Notes: generated by a model from the sequence alone, not told the origin. A stretch of DNA of 58,530 nucleotides from a virus (IMGVR_UViG_3300015050_000977:1-58530), one strand, 5' to 3'. Counted from the first letter of the stretch, positions 124-58,530 are shown. A program made the numbers and translations.

Positions 124-254
124 GTGAGCGAAGCGGGCGCCAAGGATACGGCAAGACCGCACGCAAGGCTATCGCCGAGGCAATGCGCGCGACGACAGTT
201 CCTTTCTTTGCGAACATTCCGAATCACCAACGCGCCGAGAGCGCAGAAGGGTAA
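1..254 (+). CDS. Cassette protein, 3' part; full ORF starts at ATG 58320 and crosses the origin (113 aa, MKTKLKKTPK...MLDFIEANEAW...)
   Basis: 58320-58407 plus 1-254 is 342 nt with an open frame; it starts in the loop of attC 58268-58399 and stops in the loop of attC 209-402. Confidence 0.75.
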   Translation, partial: SMLDFIEANEAWITYASDHAKTDRAWRCQVAERRFPSPDIRERSGRQGYGKTARKAIAEAMRATTVPFFANIPNHQRAESAEG

Positions 255-402
255 AAATGAAAAACCGAAAGAAAATCGAACTTGAAGAGACAGCGGGCGA
301 AAGAGAAATGCGTCTGAGCTGGAAAGCCGACGCGTGGAACGGACGCAGCACTCCCGAAAGCGCGGCTCAGTCCGGCGCGTTGGGTGTGGTCGGTTGTTCG
401 AG
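209..402 (-). repeat. attC-like site (cores TGCGAAC...GTTCGAG)
   Basis: Imperfect inverted repeat CAACGCGCCG/CGGCGCGTTG flanked by AAC and GTT cores. Confidence 0.85.
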
Positions 403-655
403 TCAGGCACCGAGCGCAATCAATCCAATAGACGAATGCGTGCGCCTCGGCACCCAACTGGCCCACCTCCGAAGCGCGCTAGAGGAGATTCAGAGAAGCG
501 CCGATGGCTCTCTAAACAACGACTTCCCCGAAGATGCTCCCGACACCCTGCAACACATCTCTGGAATCGTCGCTCGTGCTCTGGGCTCTGCGACTGAGCG
601 CCAGCCTGACTCGAACGATCCCGATCAGCCACGCGCAGAACGTAAAATCTTATGA
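257..655 (+). CDS. Cassette hypothetical protein (132 aa)
   Basis: ATG lies in the attC loop 2 nt after the upstream stop; its stop overlaps the next start (ATGA). Confidence 0.7.
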   Translation: MKNRKKIELEETAGEREMRLSWKADAWNGRSTPESAAQSGALGVVGCSSQAPSAINPIDECVRLGTQLAHLRSALEEIQRSADGSLNNDFPEDAPDTLQHISGIVARALGSATERQPDSNDPDQPRAERKIL

Positions 656-796
656 TCGAAGACATCGAACATTCGCCGCTCCCCGAGCGTAAAATCATGC
701 GGGCGATACTCGTCCCCGCCGATGGGTCGAGCGCAGAAGCCACATCGGAACCGCAGGCCCACTGTGCGCGTTGCTGCTGTGGCGGGTTGGTTCGGC
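610..796 (-). repeat. attC-like site (CTCGAAC...GTTCGGC)
   Basis: Arms GATCCCGATCAGCCACGCGCA / TGCGCGTTGCTGCTGTGGCGGGTTG. Confidence 0.85.
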
Positions 797-984
797 TCCG
801 CAGCCTCGGCCTCGTCTGCGTGGCTCAGTCGGGCATGGCTCTCGTCATGGCCGCTCTCGGCATCGTAGATCGCTGGACGGTCTATCCCGCCTGCTACTTC
901 TCTCTCACCACATTCGTCGGCGTGTGGCTCATGCGAGATAAGCCGAACGATGCACATCAGCCAACTCGGAGGCCCGACGCGTGA
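652..984 (+). CDS. Cassette hypothetical membrane protein (110 aa, about 2 hydrophobic segments)
   Basis: ATGA-coupled start; hydrophobic stretches in the C-terminal half. Confidence 0.65.
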   Translation: MIEDIEHSPLPERKIMRAILVPADGSSAEATSEPQAHCARCCCGGLVRLRSLGLVCVAQSGMALVMAALGIVDRWTVYPACYFSLTTFVGVWLMRDKPNDAHQPTRRPDA

Positions 985-1049
985 ACACCACTGATCGAAG
1001 CGACCGCTCAGGAGCATCGCCCGAGTTGGCTGTGGGTGCCGGGTTCGGC
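942..1049 (-). repeat. attC-like site (GCCGAAC...GTTCGGC)
   Basis: Perfect inner stem CAGCCAACTCGG/CCGAGTTGGCTG. Confidence 0.9.
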
Positions 1050-1337
1050 AAGGGTGAAATCTCCGCGCCGCTGCCGCTAGAATCATCGGAGACAAGGTCG
1101 GCGAACCACGTAAAAAGCGTGATGGAACAACTGAACCGGGCGCAGGCATTCGCGGGGAGTCCAAAAGCGCGGAAACTATACCGCGACGCCTATGAGATAA
1201 TTAAGGCGGCTCAAATCTCCGGCGGTTTTGTCTTTCCGAAGTCCCATGATTGCCGATTTCACCGAGACCTAACGAACAAGTGCGGGGTTTGCGGATCTTT
1301 TCCGCCGAACGAAAAAGCTCAGACACGCTCGCCATGA
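981..1337 (+). CDS. Cassette hypothetical protein (118 aa, C-terminal Cys/His cluster HDC...CGVC)
   Basis: GTGA-coupled start in the attC loop. Confidence 0.7.
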   Translation: MNTTDRSDRSGASPELAVGAGFGKGEISAPLPLESSETRSANHVKSVMEQLNRAQAFAGSPKARKLYRDAYEIIKAAQISGGFVFPKSHDCRFHRDLTNKCGVCGSFPPNEKAQTRSP

Positions 1338-1419
1338 ATCACCCTCTGCAACCGCTCGTAGGCAAGACGCCCGAACAACCTGCCGCTGGCGAGCGTTGTT
1401 CTGTGGCGCTGGGTTCGGC
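1304..1419 (-). repeat. attC-like site (GCCGAAC...GTTCGGC)
   Basis: Minus strand reads GCCGAAC-CCAGC-GCCACAGA...TCTGAGC-TTTTTC-GTTCGGC, the canonical R''-5-L''(8)...L'(7)-6-R' spacing. Confidence 0.9.
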
Positions 1420-1684
1420 GTGGGCCGCGCTCTGGACGAGCAAGAACAAACTCGACGGCCTAAAGAGACATCTCATCTACGAGAACGGAGTGCCCGCGCT
1501 TTTCTCGAAGCGCCGCTTCGCCCGAAATTTCATCCGCGCTCAATACGGCTACATCGCGACGCGCGCCGATCTTCGCGCTGAACCGCATGGCTGGCGGCTA
1601 CCCGTAGCGGTCAAAGTCACGGTTACTCTTTCTTCGCCGAACCATATAATATCACATCCCCATGAGAATTCACGGCAACCTTGA
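1334..1684 (+). CDS. Cassette hypothetical protein (116 aa, MNHPLQP...)
   Basis: ATG at 1334 overlaps the upstream TGA; preferred over the track start at 1250. Confidence 0.75.
   Translation: MNHPLQPLVGKTPEQPAAGERCSVALGSAWAALWTSKNKLDGLKRHLIYENGVPALFSKRRFARNFIRAQYGYIATRADLRAEPHGWRLPVAVKVTVTLSSPNHIISHPHENSRQP
1636..1660 (-). other. attI-like simple recombination site (half-site with no partner arm)
   Basis: Minus strand reads GGGATGTGATAT-TATATG-GTTCGGC. It is AT-rich, its core matches the previous site, and I found no complementary arm downstream. Confidence 0.6.
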
Positions 1685-1979
1685 CCGAGCAATATCCAAT
1701 CTGCGTGCCGGTCGCGAAGTATCCCGCCAATGTCGCCGCGCCTTCCTCGGCCCACCGCTCCGCGCTCCAGATGCCGGGACTTTGCTCAAAACCATCCGCG
1801 TCACAGACCACGTAAAAAATATCAGCTACGCCATCACAATTCACCAAGGCAACCGCCGCAATGGCATTGAACCACGCCTGTTCGGACAATCGTTCGTCAA
1901 ATCGCGCTACTGCGGTTTTGATCTGCTGTTTCGCGAACTGCGCAAACGGTGGTCATTGCGGTGGCTGGTCCTAAACTAA
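1662..1979 (+). CDS. Hypothetical basic protein (105 aa)
   Basis: ORF directly after the array, co-directional with the operon. Confidence 0.65.
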   Translation: MRIHGNLDRAISNLRAGREVSRQCRRAFLGPPLRAPDAGTLLKTIRVTDHVKNISYAITIHQGNRRNGIEPRLFGQSFVKSRYCGFDLLFRELRKRWSLRWLVLN

Positions 1980-25689: not shown

Positions 25690-28422
25690 TTAATATACTC
25701 CGGTCCGACTGCCGTTATCATTCACGAAAGGCACGAACTCGCAATTGGCCTTGCGGAGGTAGCGGAGGCAGTTGCCCGCAACTAGCGGCCTGCGATTGCG
25801 GCGAACCAGCACTGTCTCGTTCGGCACCGAGACGCAGTAAACGCGGCCATCGTAATCACGCTGCTCAATCAGGAACTCTTTGTCGCAGTTCGTGATCGAC
25901 GCAACGCGCAGGCGCTTCTCGCCCATCATCATTAGCGGCATCGTAGACCTTACCGACCGGCCGCGAATTTCAGACTCCCAATCCATGCTGCGCACGTAGG
26001 TGCATCCATACGGTTTTCCGAGTTTTGAAAGTAGTTCGGTAACGTCGTCAATTAGGCGCGTGGATACGCTTGCATACTTGCGCTCTGTCTTGTCCTCGCC
26101 CGACATCCATCCATCGCCCAGCACCATCGCCTCCCACATCGCCTGAAGGCAGTGGCGTGGAAGCGCCATAACATCGCGCGGGATGTATCGCTCGCTCTGC
26201 GATCCGAGCGGCGAGACGATGGACCACAAATCCTTGGACGAGATACTGAAGCTCTTGCTGTAATACCTGAAGCAGAAATCAAGGCGCGTGAGTAACGCTG
26301 CGATACGGGCGTGCTTCTCGGCGTTGACCTCACTGCATTGCGAGATGTAAACGGAATACCCGCGACCCGGAATCTGGATTTTGCCGCCGTCCGTCCCGGT
26401 TGCTGAACCCTCAGCGACATACCAACCAATGAACTCAGCCCAGTCTTTCGCGGCCACGACCTTGCCTGTCCAAATCTCAATCATGCGCTCCGGCTCGTCG
26501 GCGATGCCGTTAGTTGTGATCGGGAACGTGTCCTGACGCTTGATGTCCTTGGCGAGCCTGATCTTCAATGGGGGGCGCTGCGGATAAACAAGCATCCGAT
26601 GATTTGGCGTCACGCAGAAGTTGAGCGCGTTCTGTTCGCACGCAATCATGGGGCCGGTGTAATGCCGGTCGTGATACTCAGTCGGAACCTGATACTCCAG
26701 CGCGCCGTCCTTCGCCATCGTGGCCACCGCCACGCCACGAGGTAGCGACGGGAACGGCACCCAGCCATCAGTCGTCAAGATTTCGGTCTCGGCGTCGTAG
26801 CAATCAATCGGGTCTTTCGTAGCCTCCGTCGCCCCCAATTTACCCGTATATTCCTGCAATGCGTAGATCAAGTTCTGGCACCTGTCGCTGACGTATAACC
26901 TAGGCCGGTTCAGTGCATCAATCGGCTGGTCCGTTTTGTAGGCCAGCAGGTTATTGATAAGTTGGATACCGTCCTCAATTTCACCCTTGTTTGCCTCCGA
27001 CGACGCGGCTGGAGCCGGGATAAATGTTAGCCCGGCGTCGTCCAGCTCACTGATGATGGTCGTAGCCCCGTCCTGTGACTGGCGCTCCGCGGCGCCCATG
27101 CGCGGGTCGATGATGCGTTCGTAAATGTTGCGGTCGCCGTCCGGGCCGCTCTCGGCGGTCGTGATGTGTTCGACGTAGGCTTTGATGCCGTGAATGCGCG
27201 GCGTTGTCGCCGGGCCGGGCTTGTTGCCGGGCAAGGCCCATTCCTCGTTCTCGGGTGACTCGCGGTAGACCCACCACGTATTCGCGGCGTCGATGGCGAC
27301 CCAGACCATGAACCATGCCTTGGAGCCGGCGGGGTCGAGCGCCATGTAGAACGTGACGGGATAGGGCACGTCTTGACCCTTGGCGTTCTTGCGGGTTTTG
27401 AGCCATGGGAGGTCTTCGTGTTTGACCACGTTGCCGCCGTCTTTGACGTATTCTTTGCTGAAGAGGGGGAAGGCGGAAGTCGTGGATTTCGTGGGGACTC
27501 CGAAGGCGCGGGCTAGGATTACTTCGCGGGATTCACTACCGTAGAGCTTAAGAAATTCGCGGTAGTCGGCGAATGGGTTGTCTTGCGTCCAGCAATATAT
27601 GATGCAGCACGATCCAACAGAAAGACTCTCTTGGAGGATCGGGAGATTTGCCTGAATCTTAGGGTGGTCGCAGTAGCGCGTCTGAAGCGTTTTTGTGCGT
27701 GCTAAAATTTTGGATACTAGATCGTTCCAGCCATCGACCACGGTGTAGGTCAGCAGCAGGCGTCCATGGTAAGTGCCGAGACGGCCCATGCGGAACGTCT
27801 CAAACAAATCGGTCGGGCATTTTTCGTCCATCCATGCGAAATGCGCCTTAACTCCTTCTATTATCTGTGAGTTAGAAATATACTGCTGATAATTATGAAA
27901 CTTGATTGAGCCACCGCGTCGATAGCCTTTAACGGGCGGCATGATGGCGATTCCGTCCGTAAATCCGTTCTTCTGGTTGTATTGCAGGCTGTGGGCGATG
28001 CCCTTCTTGGTTGGCATGTCCCTCAACCAACTCGGAAGCTCTTCGTAAATAAAACGCTGCTGGTCGGCAATCGAACGCTGCTCGTTGATGTGAAAATTGT
28101 AGACCTCGGCCTCGGGGATTTCGCAAGCGGCCCAGACGGACATACGGGCGCCGAGTTTCGTTTTGCCGCTTTGGTTCCCGCCAAGCAGGATCGTCACGTT
28201 ATACTTCTTCCAGCAATCCATGACCATTTCCCATGATGGAAGCGTCCATCCCCATCCAACCGGATTCTTAGCGCTCTCGGTCTCGATGAGCTGCCGACTG
28301 TGCATGTATTCCCGCAACCTCTCCTCGCTTAGCCCAGCAAGTTCTTCGGGCGTTAGCGGAGCGCGGTATGGGATTCCGAATCGAGGCTGGAACGTGTCGG
28401 CGTATTGAATCTTTTTAGCCAT
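25690..28422 (-). CDS. terL: Terminase large subunit containing an intein
   Basis: Walker A GGNQSGKT, Walker B AWMDE, nuclease LDP motif; the C-terminal KDPID|CLRY motif is split by the intein. Confidence 0.92.
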   Translation of the reverse strand: MAKKIQYADTFQPRFGIPYRAPLTPEELAGLSEERLREYMHSRQLIETESAKNPVGWGWTLPSWEMVMDCWKKYNVTILLGGNQSGKTKLGARMSVWAACEIPEAEVYNFHINEQRSIADQQRFIYEELPSWLRDMPTKKGIAHSLQYNQKNGFTDGIAIMPPVKGYRRGGSIKFHNYQQYISNSQIIEGVKAHFAWMDEKCPTDLFETFRMGRLGTYHGRLLLTYTVVDGWNDLVSKILARTKTLQTRYCDHPKIQANLPILQESLSVGSCCIIYCWTQDNPFADYREFLKLYGSESREVILARAFGVPTKSTTSAFPLFSKEYVKDGGNVVKHEDLPWLKTRKNAKGQDVPYPVTFYMALDPAGSKAWFMVWVAIDAANTWWVYRESPENEEWALPGNKPGPATTPRIHGIKAYVEHITTAESGPDGDRNIYERIIDPRMGAAERQSQDGATTIISELDDAGLTFIPAPAASSEANKGEIEDGIQLINNLLAYKTDQPIDALNRPRLYVSDRCQNLIYALQEYTGKLGATEATKDPIDCYDAETEILTTDGWVPFPSLPRGVAVATMAKDGALEYQVPTEYHDRHYTGPMIACEQNALNFCVTPNHRMLVYPQRPPLKIRLAKDIKRQDTFPITTNGIADEPERMIEIWTGKVVAAKDWAEFIGWYVAEGSATGTDGGKIQIPGRGYSVYISQCSEVNAEKHARIAALLTRLDFCFRYYSKSFSISSKDLWSIVSPLGSQSERYIPRDVMALPRHCLQAMWEAMVLGDGWMSGEDKTERKYASVSTRLIDDVTELLSKLGKPYGCTYVRSMDWESEIRGRSVRSTMPLMMMGEKRLRVASITNCDKEFLIEQRDYDGRVYCVSVPNETVLVRRNRRPLVAGNCLRYLRKANCEFVPFVNDNGSRTGVY
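25771..26802 (-). mobile_element. Intein (344 aa) with a LAGLIDADG-type homing endonuclease domain
   Basis: Begins CYDAETEILT, block B VTPNHRM, endonuclease helices FIGWYVAEG and AMVLGDG, ends VYCVSVP...AGN followed by Cys+1. Confidence 0.92.
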
Positions 28423-53781: not shown

Positions 53782-55005
53782 ATGATCCCCACGATCCGCG
53801 CATCATCGCTCGATAGGGTGCTCTCCTGCCCCGGCTCACTCACCGTCAATGCCATCGTCGCACCCCGCGACGGTGACGACGGCGAAGAAGGCACGGCGCT
53901 ACACCACCTGTCAGCCGCCCGCATCAAAGCCGAGATGGGCGCCATTGGCGAAATCGGTCCGCAGCCTCCGGGCCAATATCCTCACTCAACCTGGATTAGT
54001 GACTACTACGTGCGCCACGTCATGGAGTCTACCCCAGCCAGTTACAGCCTAGAGTGTGAGGCGGCGCTGGCCTACTTCTTTGAACCCGAAGAACCGCGCG
54101 TTATCACGCAGGTCATGTGGGAGGACGGTCGCCCCGTGCTGCGCCAGGTGCCTTACAACGGCTTCATCCTCTCCGGCCACATTGACTGCCTCGCCCTGTC
54201 ACCGGACGCCACACACGCCATCGGCTGGGACTTGAAGACCGGCTACGACCCCGTGGACTGCGCCGATAGCAACTGGCAAATCCTCGGTTACTGCGTGCTG
54301 CTGAAGCGGGCCTACCCCACGTTGCAGTCGGTCACGTTCTACATCGTGCAGCCGCGTAACGATGAGGACGGCGACGCCGTAAACGAAGGCCATCCGCGCG
54401 TATCCTGCGTCACGATCACCGACCTTGACGCCGCGGTTGCCACGCTAGCAGTCCGCATTGCCGACGCCATTTCAAGGCCCCTCGAACTCAACACCACCAT
54501 CAAAGGCTGCAAATTCTGCGTGGGCTGCTCGTGCCCCGCGATTCGCGCCAAACAAAAACTTATGAGACTAACCATGACAGAGGAATCGCTGGCCTCGCTT
54601 AAGGCCCAGCCGGACGACGCCACGCTGGCGGAGTTCATTATCGGTGCCAAGGAACTGGCCAAGCCAACCGAGGACGCCAAGGCTATGCTGAACGACCGGC
54701 TGGATCGTAACCCGCAACTGGTGGCCGCAGACGGCACCGTGATCACGCGGGTGACTCAACGAGGCGCATGGAGCGTAAACGACCCGCAGGCGTTCTTCCG
54801 CGCCATGCGCGAACTGCTTCCGGCCGACGAACAGATTGCCCGCGTCACGAAGCCGAGCATGACGGCACTCAAGGATGAGATTGCCACGAGCATGAAGGTG
54901 CCGAAGACGAGCAAGGCAGGTGTCAGCGCCGCCAGCATTTTCGACAGCACGTTTGCGCCGCTGGCCACGCAAGGGGAACGGAAAATGATTCAATTTTCGC
55001 AATGA
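53782..55005 (+). CDS. PD-(D/E)XK exonuclease (Cas4/DUF2800-like)
   Basis: CPGS, EGTALH, GHID, DLKTG, QILGY and CKFC motifs. Confidence 0.85.
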   Translation: MIPTIRASSLDRVLSCPGSLTVNAIVAPRDGDDGEEGTALHHLSAARIKAEMGAIGEIGPQPPGQYPHSTWISDYYVRHVMESTPASYSLECEAALAYFFEPEEPRVITQVMWEDGRPVLRQVPYNGFILSGHIDCLALSPDATHAIGWDLKTGYDPVDCADSNWQILGYCVLLKRAYPTLQSVTFYIVQPRNDEDGDAVNEGHPRVSCVTITDLDAAVATLAVRIADAISRPLELNTTIKGCKFCVGCSCPAIRAKQKLMRLTMTEESLASLKAQPDDATLAEFIIGAKELAKPTEDAKAMLNDRLDRNPQLVAADGTVITRVTQRGAWSVNDPQAFFRAMRELLPADEQIARVTKPSMTALKDEIATSMKVPKTSKAGVSAASIFDSTFAPLATQGERKMIQFSQ

Positions 55006-55164
55006 CCAACCACCAACTCCTCACCATCGTTATCGTCGCAATTTGGCTGTGCTCAACGATTGGCGCGTGCGTCACAAAGCGCGCTGAAATATACCAAGCT
55101 CCGGCCATCCTCACTGTGCTCATATGCATCGGCTACTTTTTAATCAAAACAAGAGGCTAATCCC

Positions 55165-55635
55165 ATGCCCCGCTACACCACCGAGAGAGAATTGGCCATC
55201 GCACGCCGTAGCATGGGCGAGCCCAACGTCGTGATCCCGCCCGCGCCAAAGAAGCGCAAGAACGAGGAAAGCGCCGCCCAGTGCGAAGTCATCAAGTGGT
55301 GGGCGACTGCGTGCAAGGCTTATGACATTCCTGAAATTCTGCTGTTCAGCATCCCGAACGGAGGCCGGCGCGATCCACTGGCCATGATTTTTCTCAAACG
55401 AGAGGGGCTGCGCAATGGCGTTCCCGATTTGTTTCTGAGCGTCCCGCGCGGACACTGGCATGGTCTTTACGTCGAAATGAAGACAGCGACGGGACGCGTC
55501 AGGGATGAGCAGCATGAATTTATTGAGTCTGCGCGCGTGAATAACTACGTCGCATTTGTGTGCCGCAGCGCAGAGGACGCGAAGGCCATTATTGAACGGT
55601 ATCTAACTAATCCAAGCCAACTGCATTCGGCCTAA
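55165..55635 (+). CDS. VRR-NUC domain nuclease
   Basis: IPNGG, GVPDL and YVEMK motifs. Confidence 0.9.
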   Translation: MPRYTTERELAIARRSMGEPNVVIPPAPKKRKNEESAAQCEVIKWWATACKAYDIPEILLFSIPNGGRRDPLAMIFLKREGLRNGVPDLFLSVPRGHWHGLYVEMKTATGRVRDEQHEFIESARVNNYVAFVCRSAEDAKAIIERYLTNPSQLHSA

Positions 55636-55729
55636 CATCAAGACCCGACAACCCAGCCCCGAATACTACGGCGGTCACTTCAAGCCCTGCCAAATCTGCG
55701 GGGATAGCGGCTGGATAGAGGCTCAACCT

Positions 55730-56089
55730 ATGAACCCGAAAAAGACCGAAACGCTCACCCTCGCCGACGCAATGGATGCGCTCGCACGCGACATCCAATC
55801 TGGCGACGGGATCGCCAACGCAGCTATCGCGGAAGCGGCCGACCGCCTGCGCGAAACGCTAAAGGAAAACAATCGCCTCGACGGACTAATGGCGCAGCGT
55901 GACGAGCGAATCGTTGCGCTCCTACAAGAAGTGGACGAGCGCCGCCGCGACGCACAGAAAGACGCGGCGCTCGTGGGGCGGCTTCGCCGGGCGCTGGCAG
56001 ATGCGATAACCACCTACGACCCGACGCGGAAAGAGACTCTCGTGACTGCCGAGCGGCAAGAAGCGTGGGCCGCGGCATTGGCGTCATGA
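55730..56089 (+). CDS. Hypothetical coiled-coil protein
   Basis: Last fixed gene before the array. Confidence 0.7.
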   Translation: MNPKKTETLTLADAMDALARDIQSGDGIANAAIAEAADRLRETLKENNRLDGLMAQRDERIVALLQEVDERRRDAQKDAALVGRLRRALADAITTYDPTRKETLVTAERQEAWAAALAS

Positions 56090-56133
56090 CTTCGCCCAAC
56101 ATACCGGTGAGCAACACCGACACGAACACCTAA
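56086..56133 (+). CDS. Leader mini-ORF MTSPNIPVSNTDTNT crossing the first crossover
   Basis: ATG overlaps the upstream TGA; reads the core AAC as Asn, like every cassette gene. Confidence 0.5.
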   Translation: MTSPNIPVSNTDTNT

Positions 56134-56223
56134 AAACTTTACGACCATGACAAAACATAATCCTACTCAAAACATCCGCCGAAGCCTGAAGCTGTCGGTG
56201 TTGGCTCTAGTGGCTGGTTCGGC
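56094..56223 (-). repeat. attC-like site (GCCCAAC...GTTCGGC)
   Basis: Stem CAACACCGACA/TGTCGGTGTTG. Confidence 0.85.
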
Positions 56224-56431
56224 TCCGTTCTTGCTGTGCTCAAGCTACCGCACGAAGGCCGGCCAGTGGGTCCGCATCGTCGATGAATCCACGCTCAAAG
56301 GCTACGAATGCGTGAAGGGCGACGACGGAATCTGGCGCTACAACCGCGAGAGCGACCGAGGACGAGTGACCGGCTCAGCCTTCGACATGAGCGACCCCAG
56401 AAATCTTCTGCCGAACGCCCGAGGTGACTGA
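56147..56431 (+). CDS. Cassette hypothetical protein (94 aa)
   Basis: Starts in the attC loop; contains YRTKAG..VRIV...GRVTG. Confidence 0.7.
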   Translation: MTKHNPTQNIRRSLKLSVLALVAGSAPFLLCSSYRTKAGQWVRIVDESTLKGYECVKGDDGIWRYNRESDRGRVTGSAFDMSDPRNLLPNARGD

Positions 56432-56604
56432 CCAACGCCCCGCGAGCGCAGATCAACCCAACCAACTCTAGCCATGCTCTCCGATACTCTCGCAAAAGGA
56501 ATCGCTCAACCGCCGGACGTGCGGACCAAAGACGGTGCGCGCGTAGATGGCACTCACGAACAACAGCCCCGTGCAGGGGCGTTGGGTCTAGCGACTGGTT
56601 CTCC
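56410..56604 (-). repeat. attC-like site (GCCGAAC...GTTCTCC)
   Basis: Stem ACCAACGCCCC/GGGGCGTTGGGT; TGAC duplication in the left arm. Confidence 0.8.
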
Positions 56605-56612
56605 CTCTTTTT

Positions 56613-56858
56613 ATGACGATCAAACAACTCAAGGCGACAATCGCCAACATGCCCGACGAATGGCCGGTATACTTCCGGCGGATCGCGCCGCTCTGCGGCA
56701 ACGTGGAAGAAGCCGGAACGATCAACGCCGACAAATACAGCTCTTTTGGGACGCTCTATCCATGCGCCATCATCGAACCCGTGAAGGACGATGAGGAGAA
56801 CACCCACGCTGAGACAGGACCACGGCAGGACGCGGCACCGAAACGCCCTATCGCGTGA
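56613..56858 (+). CDS. Cassette hypothetical protein (81 aa, MTIKQLK...MPD)
   Basis: Typical phage MT.xxL...LPD start; stops in the next attC loop. Confidence 0.7.
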   Translation: MTIKQLKATIANMPDEWPVYFRRIAPLCGNVEEAGTINADKYSSFGTLYPCAIIEPVKDDEENTHAETGPRQDAAPKRPIA

Positions 56859-56892
56859 AGCCGTGGGCCTTGTCTCTGGCAAATGGTTAGGC
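56795..56892 (-). repeat. attC-like site (GGAGAAC...GTTAGGC)
   Basis: Arms GAGACAGGACCACGGC / GCCGTGGGCCTTGTCTC. Confidence 0.85.
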
Positions 56893-56902
56893 TCTTCTTA
56901 AA

Positions 56903-57142
56903 ATGCAAAATATACCTTACGACGACTGGCGCTCCAAAGCCGCCCGCGAAATTGCAGACGCTCTCCGCGAAGAAAACCAGCGCGTGGCCTACTATGCGTC
57001 TGGGCAGGGCGACGGCTGGGCGCGCTCCTACGGTGCAGGCAACTTCAGGAGCCCCGACTACGCCTCGATAATCGACCGGCACTATCAGGCTTCGCTCGCC
57101 AAGCCTAACGCGGAGATGAGGGACGAGCCCGAACGTAAATAA
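56903..57142 (+). CDS. Cassette hypothetical protein (79 aa)
   Basis: Ends KPNAEMRDEPERK inside the next attC. Confidence 0.65.
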   Translation: MQNIPYDDWRSKAAREIADALREENQRVAYYASGQGDGWARSYGAGNFRSPDYASIIDRHYQASLAKPNAEMRDEPERK

Positions 57143-57290
57143 ACAACATGGATACACCCACAAAAGACCTCGCCGCTGCTCAAGTGCGCGGCCACGACAC
57201 CGGCCCCGTTGGCGCTCATGCGTCGAGCGCACTCCCTCCGTCCGAATCGCAGGGCCAGTCGGCTCGTTCCTCTCGGGCGACTGGTTCTCT
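57103..57290 (-). repeat. attC-like site (GCCTAAC...GTTCTCT)
   Basis: Arms GAGGGACGAGCC / GGCTCGTTCCTC. Confidence 0.8.
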
Positions 57291-57447
57291 TCCGGGGTGG
57301 GCCGTCGATACTCTAGCGGAAAGCTGGCACGTCTCCGCAATCTTCGACGGAAATAAACACGTCCGCGCGACACTCGACCGATGCCTCAAAGAACTGCGAG
57401 CGGCGCAGGCCCGTGCGAATAAGCGCCAGCCTGAAGAGAACGACTGA
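57148..57447 (+). CDS. Cassette hypothetical protein (99 aa)
   Basis: Starts in the attC loop. Confidence 0.65.
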   Translation: MDTPTKDLAAAQVRGHDTGPVGAHASSALPPSESQGQSARSSRATGSLPGWAVDTLAESWHVSAIFDGNKHVRATLDRCLKELRAAQARANKRQPEEND

Positions 57448-57628
57448 GATGTGCCACGAGCCCGCTGAACGGAGAAAAACAATATGCAAATCAGAACGAA
57501 ACTTGGACTAGTAGATATACCGAACGAAGTCATCATGGCTGCCGCGCGGGACATAGCGGGGAGCGCAGACAGCACTCCCGAAATCGCGGCCCCATCGGGC
57601 TCGTTGTGCACTGGCGATTTGGTTCACC
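57435..57628 (-). repeat. attC-like site (AGAGAAC...GTTCACC)
   Basis: Arms GTGCCACGAGCCCG / CGGGCTCGTTGTGCAC. Confidence 0.85.
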
Positions 57629-58005
57629 GTCTGGGGGAAATCGCTGCCGCTGCGCCATTCGGTGATGCGGAATGGAATCGGACGCTCCAAGACGCGACAA
57701 TGGCGCTGCGCGAAATAGAGGAGGGCGCGAGCGACATGCACGAAGCACACGACAATCTCGCGCTCCTGCTGCGTCGCGCGGCGCGCAAGATAGACCCGCG
57801 CGACCCGCTGCGGACTGAGTGCGTGGCCTACCTCAAGCGCATCGGGCAGGCGGGAAATCCACTGCGCGGCGTGACTGCCGCACAAGATGCGGAGCCGCTC
57901 CCGGCTTCAGACCTCACCGACATGCGCGAAGCCGGAGTTTTATCTTCGGTGAACGTCCCTGATGAGCCGACGCGCGGAGCGTCGGACAAACTGAATACAA
58001 AATGA
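57484..58005 (+). CDS. Cassette hypothetical helical protein (173 aa)
   Basis: Starts in the attC loop; ATGA-coupled to the next gene. Confidence 0.7.
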   Translation: MQIRTKLGLVDIPNEVIMAAARDIAGSADSTPEIAAPSGSLCTGDLVHRLGEIAAAAPFGDAEWNRTLQDATMALREIEEGASDMHEAHDNLALLLRRAARKIDPRDPLRTECVAYLKRIGQAGNPLRGVTAAQDAEPLPASDLTDMREAGVLSSVNVPDEPTRGASDKLNTK

Positions 58006-58080
58006 AAAAGACACGAGCGGAGAAGGCACTCCCGAAAAACAGCCCCCGTAAGCGCGTTGGCTCTGGCAGGCTGGTTCGGC
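57948..58080 (-). repeat. attC-like site (GGTGAAC...GTTCGGC)
   Basis: Stem GAGCCGACGCGC / GCGCGTTGGCTC. Confidence 0.88.
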
Positions 58081-58310
58081 CTCTGGGGCTCTGGGCGGTG
58101 ATAATCTACACGCCCCAGACAGAGTGGATAAACCACTGGACGATAGCACGAACACGCACCGAAGCGCGTAAGCTATACTTTTCGCTTTGGACTGAGGCAA
58201 AACACCCCAAGAGGCACATTCGCAACGGCAGCGCCGCCCTTGTTCGGGTGACGCTTTCTTTGGCCGGGCCGAACCGGCGCATATCAGCCGCGCCCGTCGA
58301 ACTCCTCTAA
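58002..58310 (+). CDS. Cassette hypothetical basic protein (102 aa)
   Basis: Starts in one attC loop and stops in the next. Confidence 0.7.
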   Translation: MKKTRAEKALPKNSPRKRVGSGRLVRPLGLWAVIIYTPQTEWINHWTIARTRTEARKLYFSLWTEAKHPKRHIRNGSAALVRVTLSLAGPNRRISAAPVELL

Positions 58311-58399
58311 ATCCTCTCCATGAAAACCAAACTCAAGAAAACCCCGAAACGTAAGCCAGCCGGACAGACAAGGGCGTTGGCTGTGGATGCTGGTTCGCA
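58268..58399 (-). repeat. attC-like site (GCCGAAC...GTTCGCA)
   Basis: Arms CAGCCGCGCCC / GGGCGTTGGCTG. Confidence 0.8.
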
Positions 58400-58530
58400 A
58401 TCCGATTCTTCAATGCTCGACTTCATCGAGGCAAACGAAGCGTGGATTACATACGCCAGCGACCACGCCAAAACGGACAGGGCGTGGCGATGCCAAGTCG
58501 CCGAGCGGCGATTCCCGTCGCCGGACATTC
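58320..58530 (+). CDS. 5' part of the origin-spanning cassette gene
   Basis: ATG at 58320 is in frame with ORF 6..254. Confidence 0.75.
   Translation, partial: MKTKLKKTPKRKPAGQTRALAVDAGSQSDSSMLDFIEANEAWITYASDHAKTDRAWRCQVAERRFPSPDI
58408..58530. repeat. Terminal direct repeat, copy 2
   Basis: Identical to bases 1-123. Confidence 0.95.

Follow-up and report, generated by a model that had tools for sequence, protein, structure and literature searches.

What are the long inverted repeats that separate a run of small genes in the genome of an uncultured phage, and do they mark the boundaries of exchangeable genes? The locus in question lies in the IMG/VR record IMGVR_UViG_3300015050_000977, whose 58,530 nucleotides (positions 1-58530) were analysed in full and are called the window throughout. 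Twelve small + strand open reading frames (ORFs) of 79-173 amino acids (aa) are tightly packed there between a nuclease-like gene at 55165-55635 and an ORF at 1662-1979, and eleven of the ORF junctions each hold a long imperfect inverted repeat, 102-199 nt in length when about 2-3 flanking bases per side are included. We find that these eleven hairpins are attC sites of the chromosomal-integron family of Opitutaceae (Verrucomicrobiota). The explanation that we favour with considerable confidence is a cluster of attC sites lacking integron integrases (CALIN), located in the early region of a phage, whose cassettes are turned over and carry their genes on the bottom strand of the sites.

The window ends share 123 bases (1-123 = 58408-58530), and the record therefore represents a 58,407-bp circle in which the array runs unbroken across the ends; IMG/VR classes it under direct terminal repeats, as 100% complete. 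An earlier reading of this DNA (hereafter the initial annotation) had already recognized that the window ends split the array, and had placed eleven imperfect inverted repeats with starts that fall within 2 bases of ours. Its unit sizes of 308-513 bp equal the measured spacing between successive site starts. All eleven sites are on the + strand, and none occurs elsewhere in the 58,407-bp circle. The count of eleven units proved right for the full sites, but the array holds twelve cassettes.

The two arms of each site belong together

The 5' arms share the rough consensus GCCGAAC, about 9 nt, then CAGCCAACGCGC, and the 3' arms the rough consensus GCGCGTTGGCTCTGG, a few nt, then CTGGTTCGGC. Within them AAC (5' arm) and GTT (3' arm), which the initial annotation had also recorded, are invariant in 11/11 window sites. 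A clear arm sequence consensus of this kind does not agree with the initial annotation's view that the arms conserve structure but not sequence. The mean duplex energy of a 5' arm with its own 3' arm is -37.4 kcal/mol, compared with -27.2 kcal/mol (sd 5.8) with the 3' arms of other units, and the observed sum for cognate arms was reached by none of 20,000 permutations. Searched against the whole window, arm profiles match only within the array and always on the + strand, bar one match at E 4.9. A blind long-range scan of duplex energy was discarded as noise, the GC-rich region giving -25 to -40 kcal/mol nearly everywhere, and a reading of the conserved 3' arm as a sigma-54-like or other promoter was dropped, its -12 GC being out of register by eye.

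The two arms are inverted repeats that could equally flank the gene bodies, which would then be small transposon-like units with inverted terminal repeats (3' arm on the left, 5' arm on the right) moved by a transposase. Against such an origin, each arm covaries with its partner across the junction, all sites have one orientation with exactly one per gene junction, and the array ends in a lone 5' arm. The window also lacks a suitable enzyme: a six-frame search found neither a serine recombinase nor a Y1 transposase, both of which were accordingly dropped as candidate partners of the sites, and six-frame translation of the complete genome gave no match to the tyrosine recombinase family PF00589 at E <= 1. 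We regard transposon-like units as an explanation of almost negligible probability.

The sites belong to an integron family of Verrucomicrobiota

Verrucomicrobia are among the integron carriers in the part of Cury et al. 2016 (PMC4889954) used here. According to the sections of Nivina et al. 2016 (NAR, PMC5027507) on which we draw, the bottom strand of an attC site carries RYYYAAC in its R' box, cut between A and C, with spacers of five to six bases and with extra bases near L'' that are set off by a six-pair stem, the site being 57-141 bp long. A search for comparable sites in cellular genomes, in which the 3'-arm pattern was scanned across one genome per prokaryotic species, returned at least 120 loci, at least 38 of them with three or more arm hits and up to 18 sites in 8 kb. 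Among the 24 titled loci with at least three arm hits, 20 are from Verrucomicrobiota, mostly Opitutales/Opitutaceae; the other four are contigs of metagenome-assembled genomes (MAGs) labelled otherwise. One of these, a 9-kb contig labelled Candidatus Paceibacterota (L122), packs eighteen members of this attC family into 8 kb. Its label, like those of the three others, may result from mis-binning.

An alignment of 39 short (~64-nt) sites from bacterial contigs (A4; 32 labelled Verrucomicrobiota, 7 without a title seen) defines the layout of the family. In the strand that corresponds to the window + strand, A4 sites read GCCnAAC, a 6-nt spacer, a stem, a short loop, a 4-5-nt spacer and GTTnGGC. 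The stem has 8 pairs broken by one unpaired T on the 3' side, then six pairs and a 2x3 internal loop, so that the 3' arm shows an unpaired T in column 58, six pairs in columns 59-64 and then 3 unpaired nt opposite 2. Pairing holds in 91.8% of the A4 cells, compared with 86.1% in shuffles and 14-45% when the partners are slid.

From A4 alone, with a hand-set structure of 18 pairs, we built the covariance model R2, which replaced a model (R1) based on an RNAalifold consensus of only 8 pairs. The six top matches of R2 in the window all lie inside the array and on the + strand: sites u11, u10, u3, u7, u1 and u6 (numbered in array order) score 38.5, 28.2, 25.4, 16.7, 15.6 (partial) and 13.6 bits, respectively, and the best match outside the array scores 12.2 bits (E 0.33). 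Window sites align full length to the A4/R2 structure as a hairpin with an R box, an unpaired central spacer and an L box, and the unpaired T with its 6-bp stem is visible in the alignments of u11, u10 and u3.

Over 13 phage loci (237 kb), R2 gave 68 matches at E <= 0.05. In the alignment of these phage sites, which leans towards structure because it was fitted to the model, 93.5% of the cells pair versus 73.2% in shuffles, both sides have changed in 200 cells versus 58.8, and the three AAC/GTT pairs are kept in 65, 65 and 66 of the 67 scored sites. A further covariance model, R3, was derived from the 68 phage sites, five of which come from the window, leaving six of the eleven window sites outside the training set. 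It recovers all eleven at full length on the + strand with 38.6-73.6 bits; the best unrelated match in the genome reaches 14 bits (E 0.12).

In bacteria, this family stands next to integron integrases. TIGR02249 integron integrases are present in the Horticoccus and Oleiharenicola genomes (371 and 379 bits; cut-off 265), and in Horticoccus a - strand intI is followed by a divergent + strand ORF and then by a site whose model strand is '-', which is the classical layout. The attC architecture put forward in the initial annotation is thus borne out, in that a model built from bacterial sites only matches the window sites and the family adjoins IntI both in Horticoccus and in a phage record. Its term integron-like holds as far as the attC array is concerned; since the window has no IntI, the array is a CALIN and not an integron. 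By definition (PMC4889954 and PMC9892861, in the parts used here), a CALIN comprises two or more attC sites that share a strand and are separated by less than 4 kb, without an integron integrase in the vicinity. The window has eleven sites on the + strand, 308-513 bp from start to start, and no integrase in the genome.

Related phage records carry the same arrays, some with an integrase

The helicase of the window phage has hundreds of relatives, and loci fetched via this helicase and via the 3'-arm pattern show the same arms in arrays of at least ten other IMG/VR records. In two of these records (G002 and G003) the array is immediately followed by a gene for a tyrosine recombinase that shares the strand of the cassette ORFs. 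Against the NCBIfam integron-integrase model (cut-off 265) the protein of G002 reaches 312.4 bits; that of G003 is IntI-like, with 212.7 bits, below the cut-off, and a XerC score of 85 bits. A lone GCC(G/T)AAC lies upstream of the intI start, by 38 nt in G002 and 65 nt in G003. Because G002 has matches to portal and major head proteins and G003 to tail proteins, we take both to be phages or prophages; phrog_2 (terminase), used as a phage marker, gave no match in G002-G005.

G002 (66,085 bp, CheckV 100% complete; loci L115:9477-19187 and L116:3442-4398) has at least 17 attC matches followed by the same-strand IntI, which together make up a complete integron within a phage genome. G004 (69,916 bp, direct terminal repeats; loci L119 and L120) has several attC clusters on both strands, at about 1.3-2.8 kb, 13-15 kb, 21 kb, 32 kb and 37-40 kb, and no tyrosine recombinase was found in it. 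In a further relative (L012:5400-9040) the attC array is upstream of the nuclease gene, not downstream, so that the position of the array in the early region varies between phages.

Other searches for relatives were less productive. No relatives came from blastn of the array against GenBank phages or from a helicase alignment searched in species genomes, and single-protein locus searches with the helicase and the exonuclease returned nothing or only the contig of L020, a relative described below.

Layout of the array

Twelve cassettes are bounded by 13 AAC boxes, which belong to the eleven full sites and two half-sites. The features are as follows; bits refer to R2 and R3, and L020 and L030 are the two relatives compared in the next section.

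55165..55635, +: left flank gene; its stop TAA (55633-55635) lies inside the first AAC box; homologs 77% (L020) and 63% (L030)
55630..55636, +: left half-site GCCTAAC (R' box, bottom strand, far array end); cut AA|C at 55635|55636
55636..56099, +: cassette 1; ORF 55730-56089 (119 aa), its stop preceding the next AAC; no homolog in L020 or L030
56092..56225, +: attC u1; AAC 56098-56100, GTT 56217-56219; R3 63.0 bits; folds
56100..56415, +: cassette 2; ORF 56147-56431 (94 aa), start in the u1 loop; weak phrog_9244 match
56408..56606, +: attC u2; AAC 56414-56416, GTT 56598-56600; R3 46.0 bits
56416..56800, +: cassette 3; ORF 56613-56858 (81 aa), start 7 nt past u2
56793..56894, +: attC u3; AAC 56799-56801, GTT 56886-56888; R2 25.4 bits (E 3.9e-5), R3 54.0 bits
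56801..57108, +: cassette 4; ORF 56903-57142 (79 aa)
57101..57292, +: attC u4; AAC 57107-57109, GTT 57284-57286; R3 38.6 bits
57109..57440, +: cassette 5; ORF 57148-57447 (99 aa)
57433..57630, +: attC u5; AAC 57439-57441, GTT 57622-57624; R3 43.8 bits
57441..57953, +: cassette 6; ORF 57484-58005 (173 aa); 18 database homologs
57946..58082, +: attC u6; AAC 57952-57954, GTT 58074-58076; R2 36.1 bits (13-loci search), R3 71.2 bits
57954..58273, +: cassette 7; ORF 58002-58310 (102 aa)
58266..58401, +: attC u7; AAC 58272-58274, GTT 58393-58395; R2 16.7 bits (E 0.015), R3 49.1 bits
58274..58530 then 124-214 (1-123 repeats 58408-58530), +: cassette 8; ORF 58320 to 254 (113 aa)
207..404, +: attC u8; AAC 213-215, GTT 396-398; R3 44.3 bits; arms closely like the first L020 site
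215..615, +: cassette 9; ORF 257-655 (132 aa)
608..798, +: attC u9; AAC 614-616, GTT 790-792; R2 17.1 bits (13-loci search), R3 57.4 bits
616..947, +: cassette 10; ORF 652-984 (110 aa), start overlapping the preceding stop (ATGA)
940..1051, +: attC u10; AAC 946-948, GTT 1043-1045; R2 28.2 bits (E 6e-6), R3 60.5 bits; DNA-fold z -4.29
948..1309, +: cassette 11; ORF 981-1337 (118 aa), GTG start overlapping the preceding stop
1302..1421, +: attC u11; AAC 1308-1310, GTT 1413-1415; R2 38.5 bits (E 5.1e-9), R3 73.6 bits
1310..1641, +: cassette 12; ORF 1334-1684 (116 aa), crossing the last AAC into the flank; phase by hand: (1640-1334) mod 3 = 0
1636..1642, +: right half-site, a lone GCCGAAC without a 3' partner; right array boundary
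1662..1979, +: right flank ORF, 105 aa, no family match; 93% in L020, absent from L030

The half-site at 55630..55636 is the left boundary of the variable region and is followed only by a decayed 3' partner, as read by eye. At the other end, the position of the lone GCCGAAC matches that of attI in the IntI-bearing phage records. The initial annotation had taken the genes at 55730-56089 and 1662-1979 as flanks: the latter is indeed a shared flank, but the former lies inside the variable region, as cassette 1. The label 'VRR-NUC-like' for the left flank gene has no support from family searches, and NCBIfam gave no match.

Four stop/start overlaps, reading ATGA or GTGA, occur among the packed ORFs of the array. 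Directly after the lone AAC box, window positions 1643-1661 read CATATAATATCAC; they include a TATAAT-like hexamer just before ORF 1662, kept in L020, which by its sequence could be a putative promoter of the downstream genes. The cassette 6 ORF also contains a local inverted repeat (57701-57790) with a duplex energy of -46.3 kcal/mol, unrelated to the attC arms.

Cassette content changes at the AAC boundaries

The relative L020, the closest one in this region, is complete at 58.3 kb and has almost the backbone of the window phage on either side of the array, with amino acid identities of 89% for the exonuclease, 77% for the nuclease, 93% for ORF 1662 and 86% for ORF 2097. BLASTP of the window's twelve cassette ORFs against L020 found no match for any of them. 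L020 has a shorter array with ORFs of its own, separated by the same kind of site. Homology with the window breaks off directly after GCC(T/C)AAC (window 55630-55636), at the 3' end of the nuclease gene, and picks up again at TTCTTCGCCGAAC (window 1630-1642). Array content that differs between near-identical backbones is what turnover driven by IntI would lead one to expect.

In a second relative, L030, whose helicase is 84% identical in amino acids, the array, ORF 1662 and an AAC box at the corresponding position are all missing. Between its homologs of ORF 2097 and the helicase, L030 carries a 361-aa ORF (L030:8904-9989) that is absent from the window and in which a 14-residue unit (NRQLPHLGDAGTGI-like) is repeated in tandem about four times. 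Judged by eye, this ORF is a possible candidate for a DNA methyltransferase.

Single cassettes occur without this phage backbone in other metagenomes. We compared contigs of four public runs from four studies (X1-X4), three labelled wastewater metagenome and one metagenome, in which the flank 55000-55589 has a depth of 0 and cassettes 4 and 6 are covered. A 778-nt contig from X4 is identical to window 56799-57111 (0 differences) and departs from the window to either side; its matching part begins at the AAC of u3 and ends two bases beyond that of u4. Contigs from X3 and X4 cover 57438/57439 to 57954/57956 and then diverge. One X4 contig matches 57439-57954 (AAC of u5 to AAC of u6), continues with 203 other letters and matches again from 58275, so that the 320 bases of cassette 7, from the AAC of u6 to that of u7, are swapped for 203 letters. 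Loose contig ends cluster at 56798/56799 in three runs and at 57954-57956 in X1-X3, and the X4 joint also leaves at 57954. Weaker links extend to other arrays: the cassette 8 ORF is 53% identical over 64 aa to an ORF in G004, and the cassette 9 ORF is 56.5% identical over 46 aa to an ORF in the array of L053.

The initial annotation had proposed a shufflable accessory-gene slot and a comparison of related phages as its test. Both stand up: L020 has different genes between the same two AAC boxes, the change in gene content being bounded at AAC, and single cassettes bounded by AAC are found in other metagenomes.

Exchange of this kind need not involve IntI. The sites may be attC by descent only, with the cassettes exchanged at the 30-70-nt conserved junctions by ordinary or RecT-type homologous recombination. 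Genes for a RecT-like annealing protein and two exonucleases lie shortly upstream of the array, and the genome has no integrase; sequence conservation extends over the arms and some 40 nt ahead of the 3' arm, and whole sites are 78-86% identical between unrelated phage records. Some contig breaks, moreover, lie at the 3' arm and not at AAC (56882-56890, 56225, 57606 and 58386-58397), a point to be set against cutting by IntI. We read these ends as related sites on other cassettes, and they also fit some homologous exchange. Breaks within 0-2 nt of AAC in several independent cases (both ends in L020, 56798/56799, 57954-57956 and the replaced cassette 7) are at odds with homologous exchange, as are the IntI genes that relatives encode beside such arrays and the constant codon phase of AAC described below, which is what a fixed cut site would select. 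On balance we think it unlikely that homologous recombination does this without IntI; RecT/exonuclease exchange may operate alongside IntI.

Genes lie on the bottom strand and read across the cut site

The orientation of the genes relative to the sites sets the phage arrays apart. In Horticoccus, intI is on the model strand of the sites and the cassette genes are opposite to it. G002 and G003 likewise have intI on the model strand, but their cassette genes share that strand and run towards intI. The window has the same relation of sites to genes as G002 and G003, its genes lying on the recombining bottom strand. Counted over cassette bodies, coding falls on the model strand, the other strand or neither in 20/6/5 cases for phages and 16/75/12 for bacteria.

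Start codons are placed inside the sites. Of the eleven ORFs preceded by a full site, ten begin within the attC loop of their own cassette and one begins 7 nt downstream of its site; cassette 1 is preceded by the decayed end site only. The loop contains both an A-rich stretch and a start codon in 10/11 window sites. Across the larger sample, an ORF starts inside the site at 52/67 phage sites versus 40/149 bacterial ones.

At their 3' ends, ten of the twelve ORFs read the AAC of the next full site (u2-u11) in frame as Asn, and an eleventh reads the lone end box; the stop codon, 2-19 codons past AAC, is supplied by the neighbouring cassette. This phase is common to phage arrays. Among 59 phage sites, AAC is in phase 0 at 47, in phase 1 at 10 and in phase 2 at none, with 2 having no open frame, whereas 149 sites in bacterial arrays have no preference (24, 24 and 32 in phases 0, 1 and 2; 69 none). 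An in-phase stop follows AAC within the site at 64/67 phage sites versus 102/149 bacterial ones. Because the cut falls in an Asn codon whose phase is constant, cassettes can succeed one another in any order with the frames intact.

Two sequence measures support the + strand ORFs as the actual genes. In cassette 6, 17 of the 26 population differences listed fall on codon position 3 of the + ORF (p 8e-4), compared with only 5/25 on the third position of the antisense ORF. The G+C content by codon position also fits the + strand ORFs, although weakly, the mirror frame having a similar pattern.

Every site is in the sense strand of a single operon, with A-rich stretches and start codons in nearly all the loops. 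The hairpins might therefore act mainly in the early-operon mRNA, through RNase III-type processing or through start codons held in open loops, their likeness to attC being secondary. RNA folding of the sites does yield long hairpins, and G-U pairs are mildly more frequent on the sense strand. A role in RNA alone does not hold, however, because the same sites serve bacterial arrays with genes on the other strand, where the sense RNA does not contain this strand. The sites also adjoin integron integrases, and cleavage of the two arms would break a pair of genes within their coding regions. A search of the whole window with Rfam gave 0 matches at the gathering score, hence no curated RNA family, RNase III-type included. 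We consider a mainly RNA-level function highly improbable; an RNA effect on translation could exist in addition to the attC role.

Evidence that weighs against the attC and CALIN assignment

Several observations fit less well with a phage CALIN whose cassettes are moved by an integrase. The window has no integrase at all, and recombination in this phage is something that we infer. R2 reaches E <= 0.05 for only 5/11 window sites, the five longest scoring low because loops are penalised. Five of the eleven sites (191-199 nt) exceed the published attC length; the other six measure 102-137 nt. The strict RYYYAAC/GTTRRRY pattern fits only 2/11 sites, u1 (GCCCAAC) and u4 (GCCTAAC), and most read GCCGAAC; the left end box GCCTAAC fits the strict RYYYAAC as well. 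This departure characterizes the family as a whole rather than the phage, because the bacterial sites read GCCnAAC and the fourth pair is unpaired in the model.

Folding energies give little help. The initial annotation had looked to the folding of each site: the hairpin alignments with R2 and R3 do run full length, but the energy z-scores under DNA parameters are weak and show no strand preference. For the six sites folded as DNA, the + strand values are -0.61, -2.20, +0.12, +0.03, -4.29 and -1.13, the - strand is no worse, and only u3 and u10 beat at least 97% of shuffles on the + strand. In two of the six (u6 and u7), the long-range hairpin is not the minimum-energy fold on either strand. 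The excess of G-T pairs on the + strand is mild (20 versus 9 pairs, -411 versus -379 kcal/mol with RNA parameters). As whole-site folding energy is weak and without strand preference, the case for the sites rests on covariation.

Nor is the orientation rule absolute, given that 6/31 phage cassette bodies are antisense and 16/103 bacterial ones are sense, although some of the 'bacterial' MAG contigs in this comparison may be phage.

Cassette proteins and genome context

The cassette proteins give few clues to function. Pfam and PHROGs returned nothing above curated cut-offs for the 11/12 cassette ORFs scanned (all except that from 58320 to 254), phrog_9244, of unknown function, being the only PHROG to come up among those scanned; a protein atlas search with the cassette proteins produced no usable lead. 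One cassette of G002 has a Methyltransf_11 domain (23.4 bits). Anti-defence or host-takeover functions are our guess for these proteins.

The circle has a G+C content of 59% and encodes a terminase, an adaptor, a helicase, a DnaB-like helicase and the RecT-like protein and two exonucleases mentioned above. The array is probably carried by a virulent phage, in its early/replication region, and Opitutaceae are the likely hosts. No tRNA was found in the window record. A-rich stretches without a Shine-Dalgarno motif precede the window genes. No RNA data set was among the sequencing runs listed as containing this DNA.

The terminase (25690-28422, - strand, 910 aa) matches the 580-aa terminase open frame of L020 only at residues 1-541 and 884-910, and about 340 residues therefore look inserted, possibly as an intein. 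Residues 539-613 match a 'thymidylate synthase' PHROG. Intein or homing-endonuclease Pfam domains are also present in several helicase homologs.

Discussion

The observations suggest how such an array could work. In integron terms the window + strand is the 'bottom' strand, on which each site consists, from 5' to 3', of GCCNAAC (R'), a spacer, L', a variable loop, L'' carrying the extra bases, a second spacer and GTTNGGC (R''). An integron integrase acting on two such sites would fold the strand and cut between the A and C of AAC, excising and inserting units that run from AA|C to AA|C. For the window phage, IntI may be supplied in trans, from a host chromosomal integron or a co-infecting IntI-bearing relative. 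For the first insertion, the GCCTAA|C that closes the nuclease gene may have served as a secondary site, given that joining the two array ends restores a plausible ancestral junction. The array would be transcribed as one operon with the early genes, from an upstream phage promoter and towards the attI end. At each exchange the upstream protein would swap its last few residues and borrow its neighbour's stop codon, and the neighbour would bring its own A-rich start region in the attC loop.

Taken together, we lean slightly towards a wider reading, in which an Opitutaceae phage lineage took over an integron. Some of its members would have IntI as the last gene behind arrays of at least 17 sites, and all would draw on a phage-specific pool of 'inverted' cassettes, with bottom-strand genes, starts mostly in loops, frames completed across AA|C and expression from an early promoter. 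Single cassettes would circulate in wastewater independently of the backbone and would probably encode host-takeover or anti-defence functions.

Repeated structured junctions between small early genes are familiar from other phages. In T4-type phages, promoter/stem-loop junctions (PeSLs) of the hyperplastic regions have been proposed to promote accessory-gene shuffling by homologous recombination, which RecT-type exchange of the present cassettes would resemble, and T7 has RNase III sites between its early genes. Unlike the sites described here, neither is known to have a link to an integron integrase, an AAC/GTT core or matching sites in host integrons.

The closer comparison is with integrons themselves. 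With the attC sites of classical mobile integrons, as covered in the sections of PMC5027507 used here, the window sites share AAC in R' and GTT in R'', the hairpin of R box, spacer and L box, the extra bases of L'' and a variable loop. They differ in a fourth base that is usually G, in the length of 5/11 sites (>141 bp), in a loop that codes for a protein N-terminus and in genes that face the platform; according to the same sections, cassettes must face away from the platform for expression from Pc. The chromosomal integrons of Verrucomicrobiota (Horticoccus sp. and Oleiharenicola sp. Vm1) have the same consensus, spacers, extra bases and polarity of sites to intI. Their sites are mostly 54-140 nt long and their genes are on the top strand, running away from intI, whereas the phage sites of the window measure 102-199 nt, hold a start codon and leader in the loop and have genes that run towards the attI end.

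Integrons and CALINs have been reported in phages by Qi et al. 2023 (Front Microbiol, PMC9892861), whose account, in the parts on which we rely, lists components in 21/10,705 NCBI phage genomes, among them 17 CALINs of at least two sites each. Five of six tested phage attC sites were recombined by IntI1, methyltransferase cassettes were noted, and the arrays of phages TJE1 and PH101 have the orientation typical of bacterial arrays. The window agrees with these CALINs in combining attC sites and small cassettes in a phage without IntI, and a methyltransferase cassette occurs also in G002. It differs from what those parts describe in its 11 full sites, 12 cassettes and bottom-strand genes, and in belonging to a family found in at least ten IMG/VR records, two of them with IntI. 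On this basis, the kind of element is already described and the variant features are new, namely the coding layout, with genes on the bottom strand, starts in the attC loop and frames closed across AA|C. A keyword search found no literature on bottom-strand arrays with starts inside attC or on a Verrucomicrobiota integron-phage lineage, which is not proof of absence.

Integrons are known as gene-capture devices of bacteria, and in the parts of PMC9892861 consulted the only phage-borne examples reported are small clusters that occur rarely. The complete phage genome studied here has 12 cassettes, and related phage records have full integrons. If our reading is true, phages have a cassette economy of their own, coding and translation signals can be superimposed on recombination sites, and the many small, unknown early genes of phages would acquire a traceable unit of exchange, which opens a route to mining anti-defence genes. 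For an uncultured phage group, the finding further predicts Opitutaceae as the hosts.

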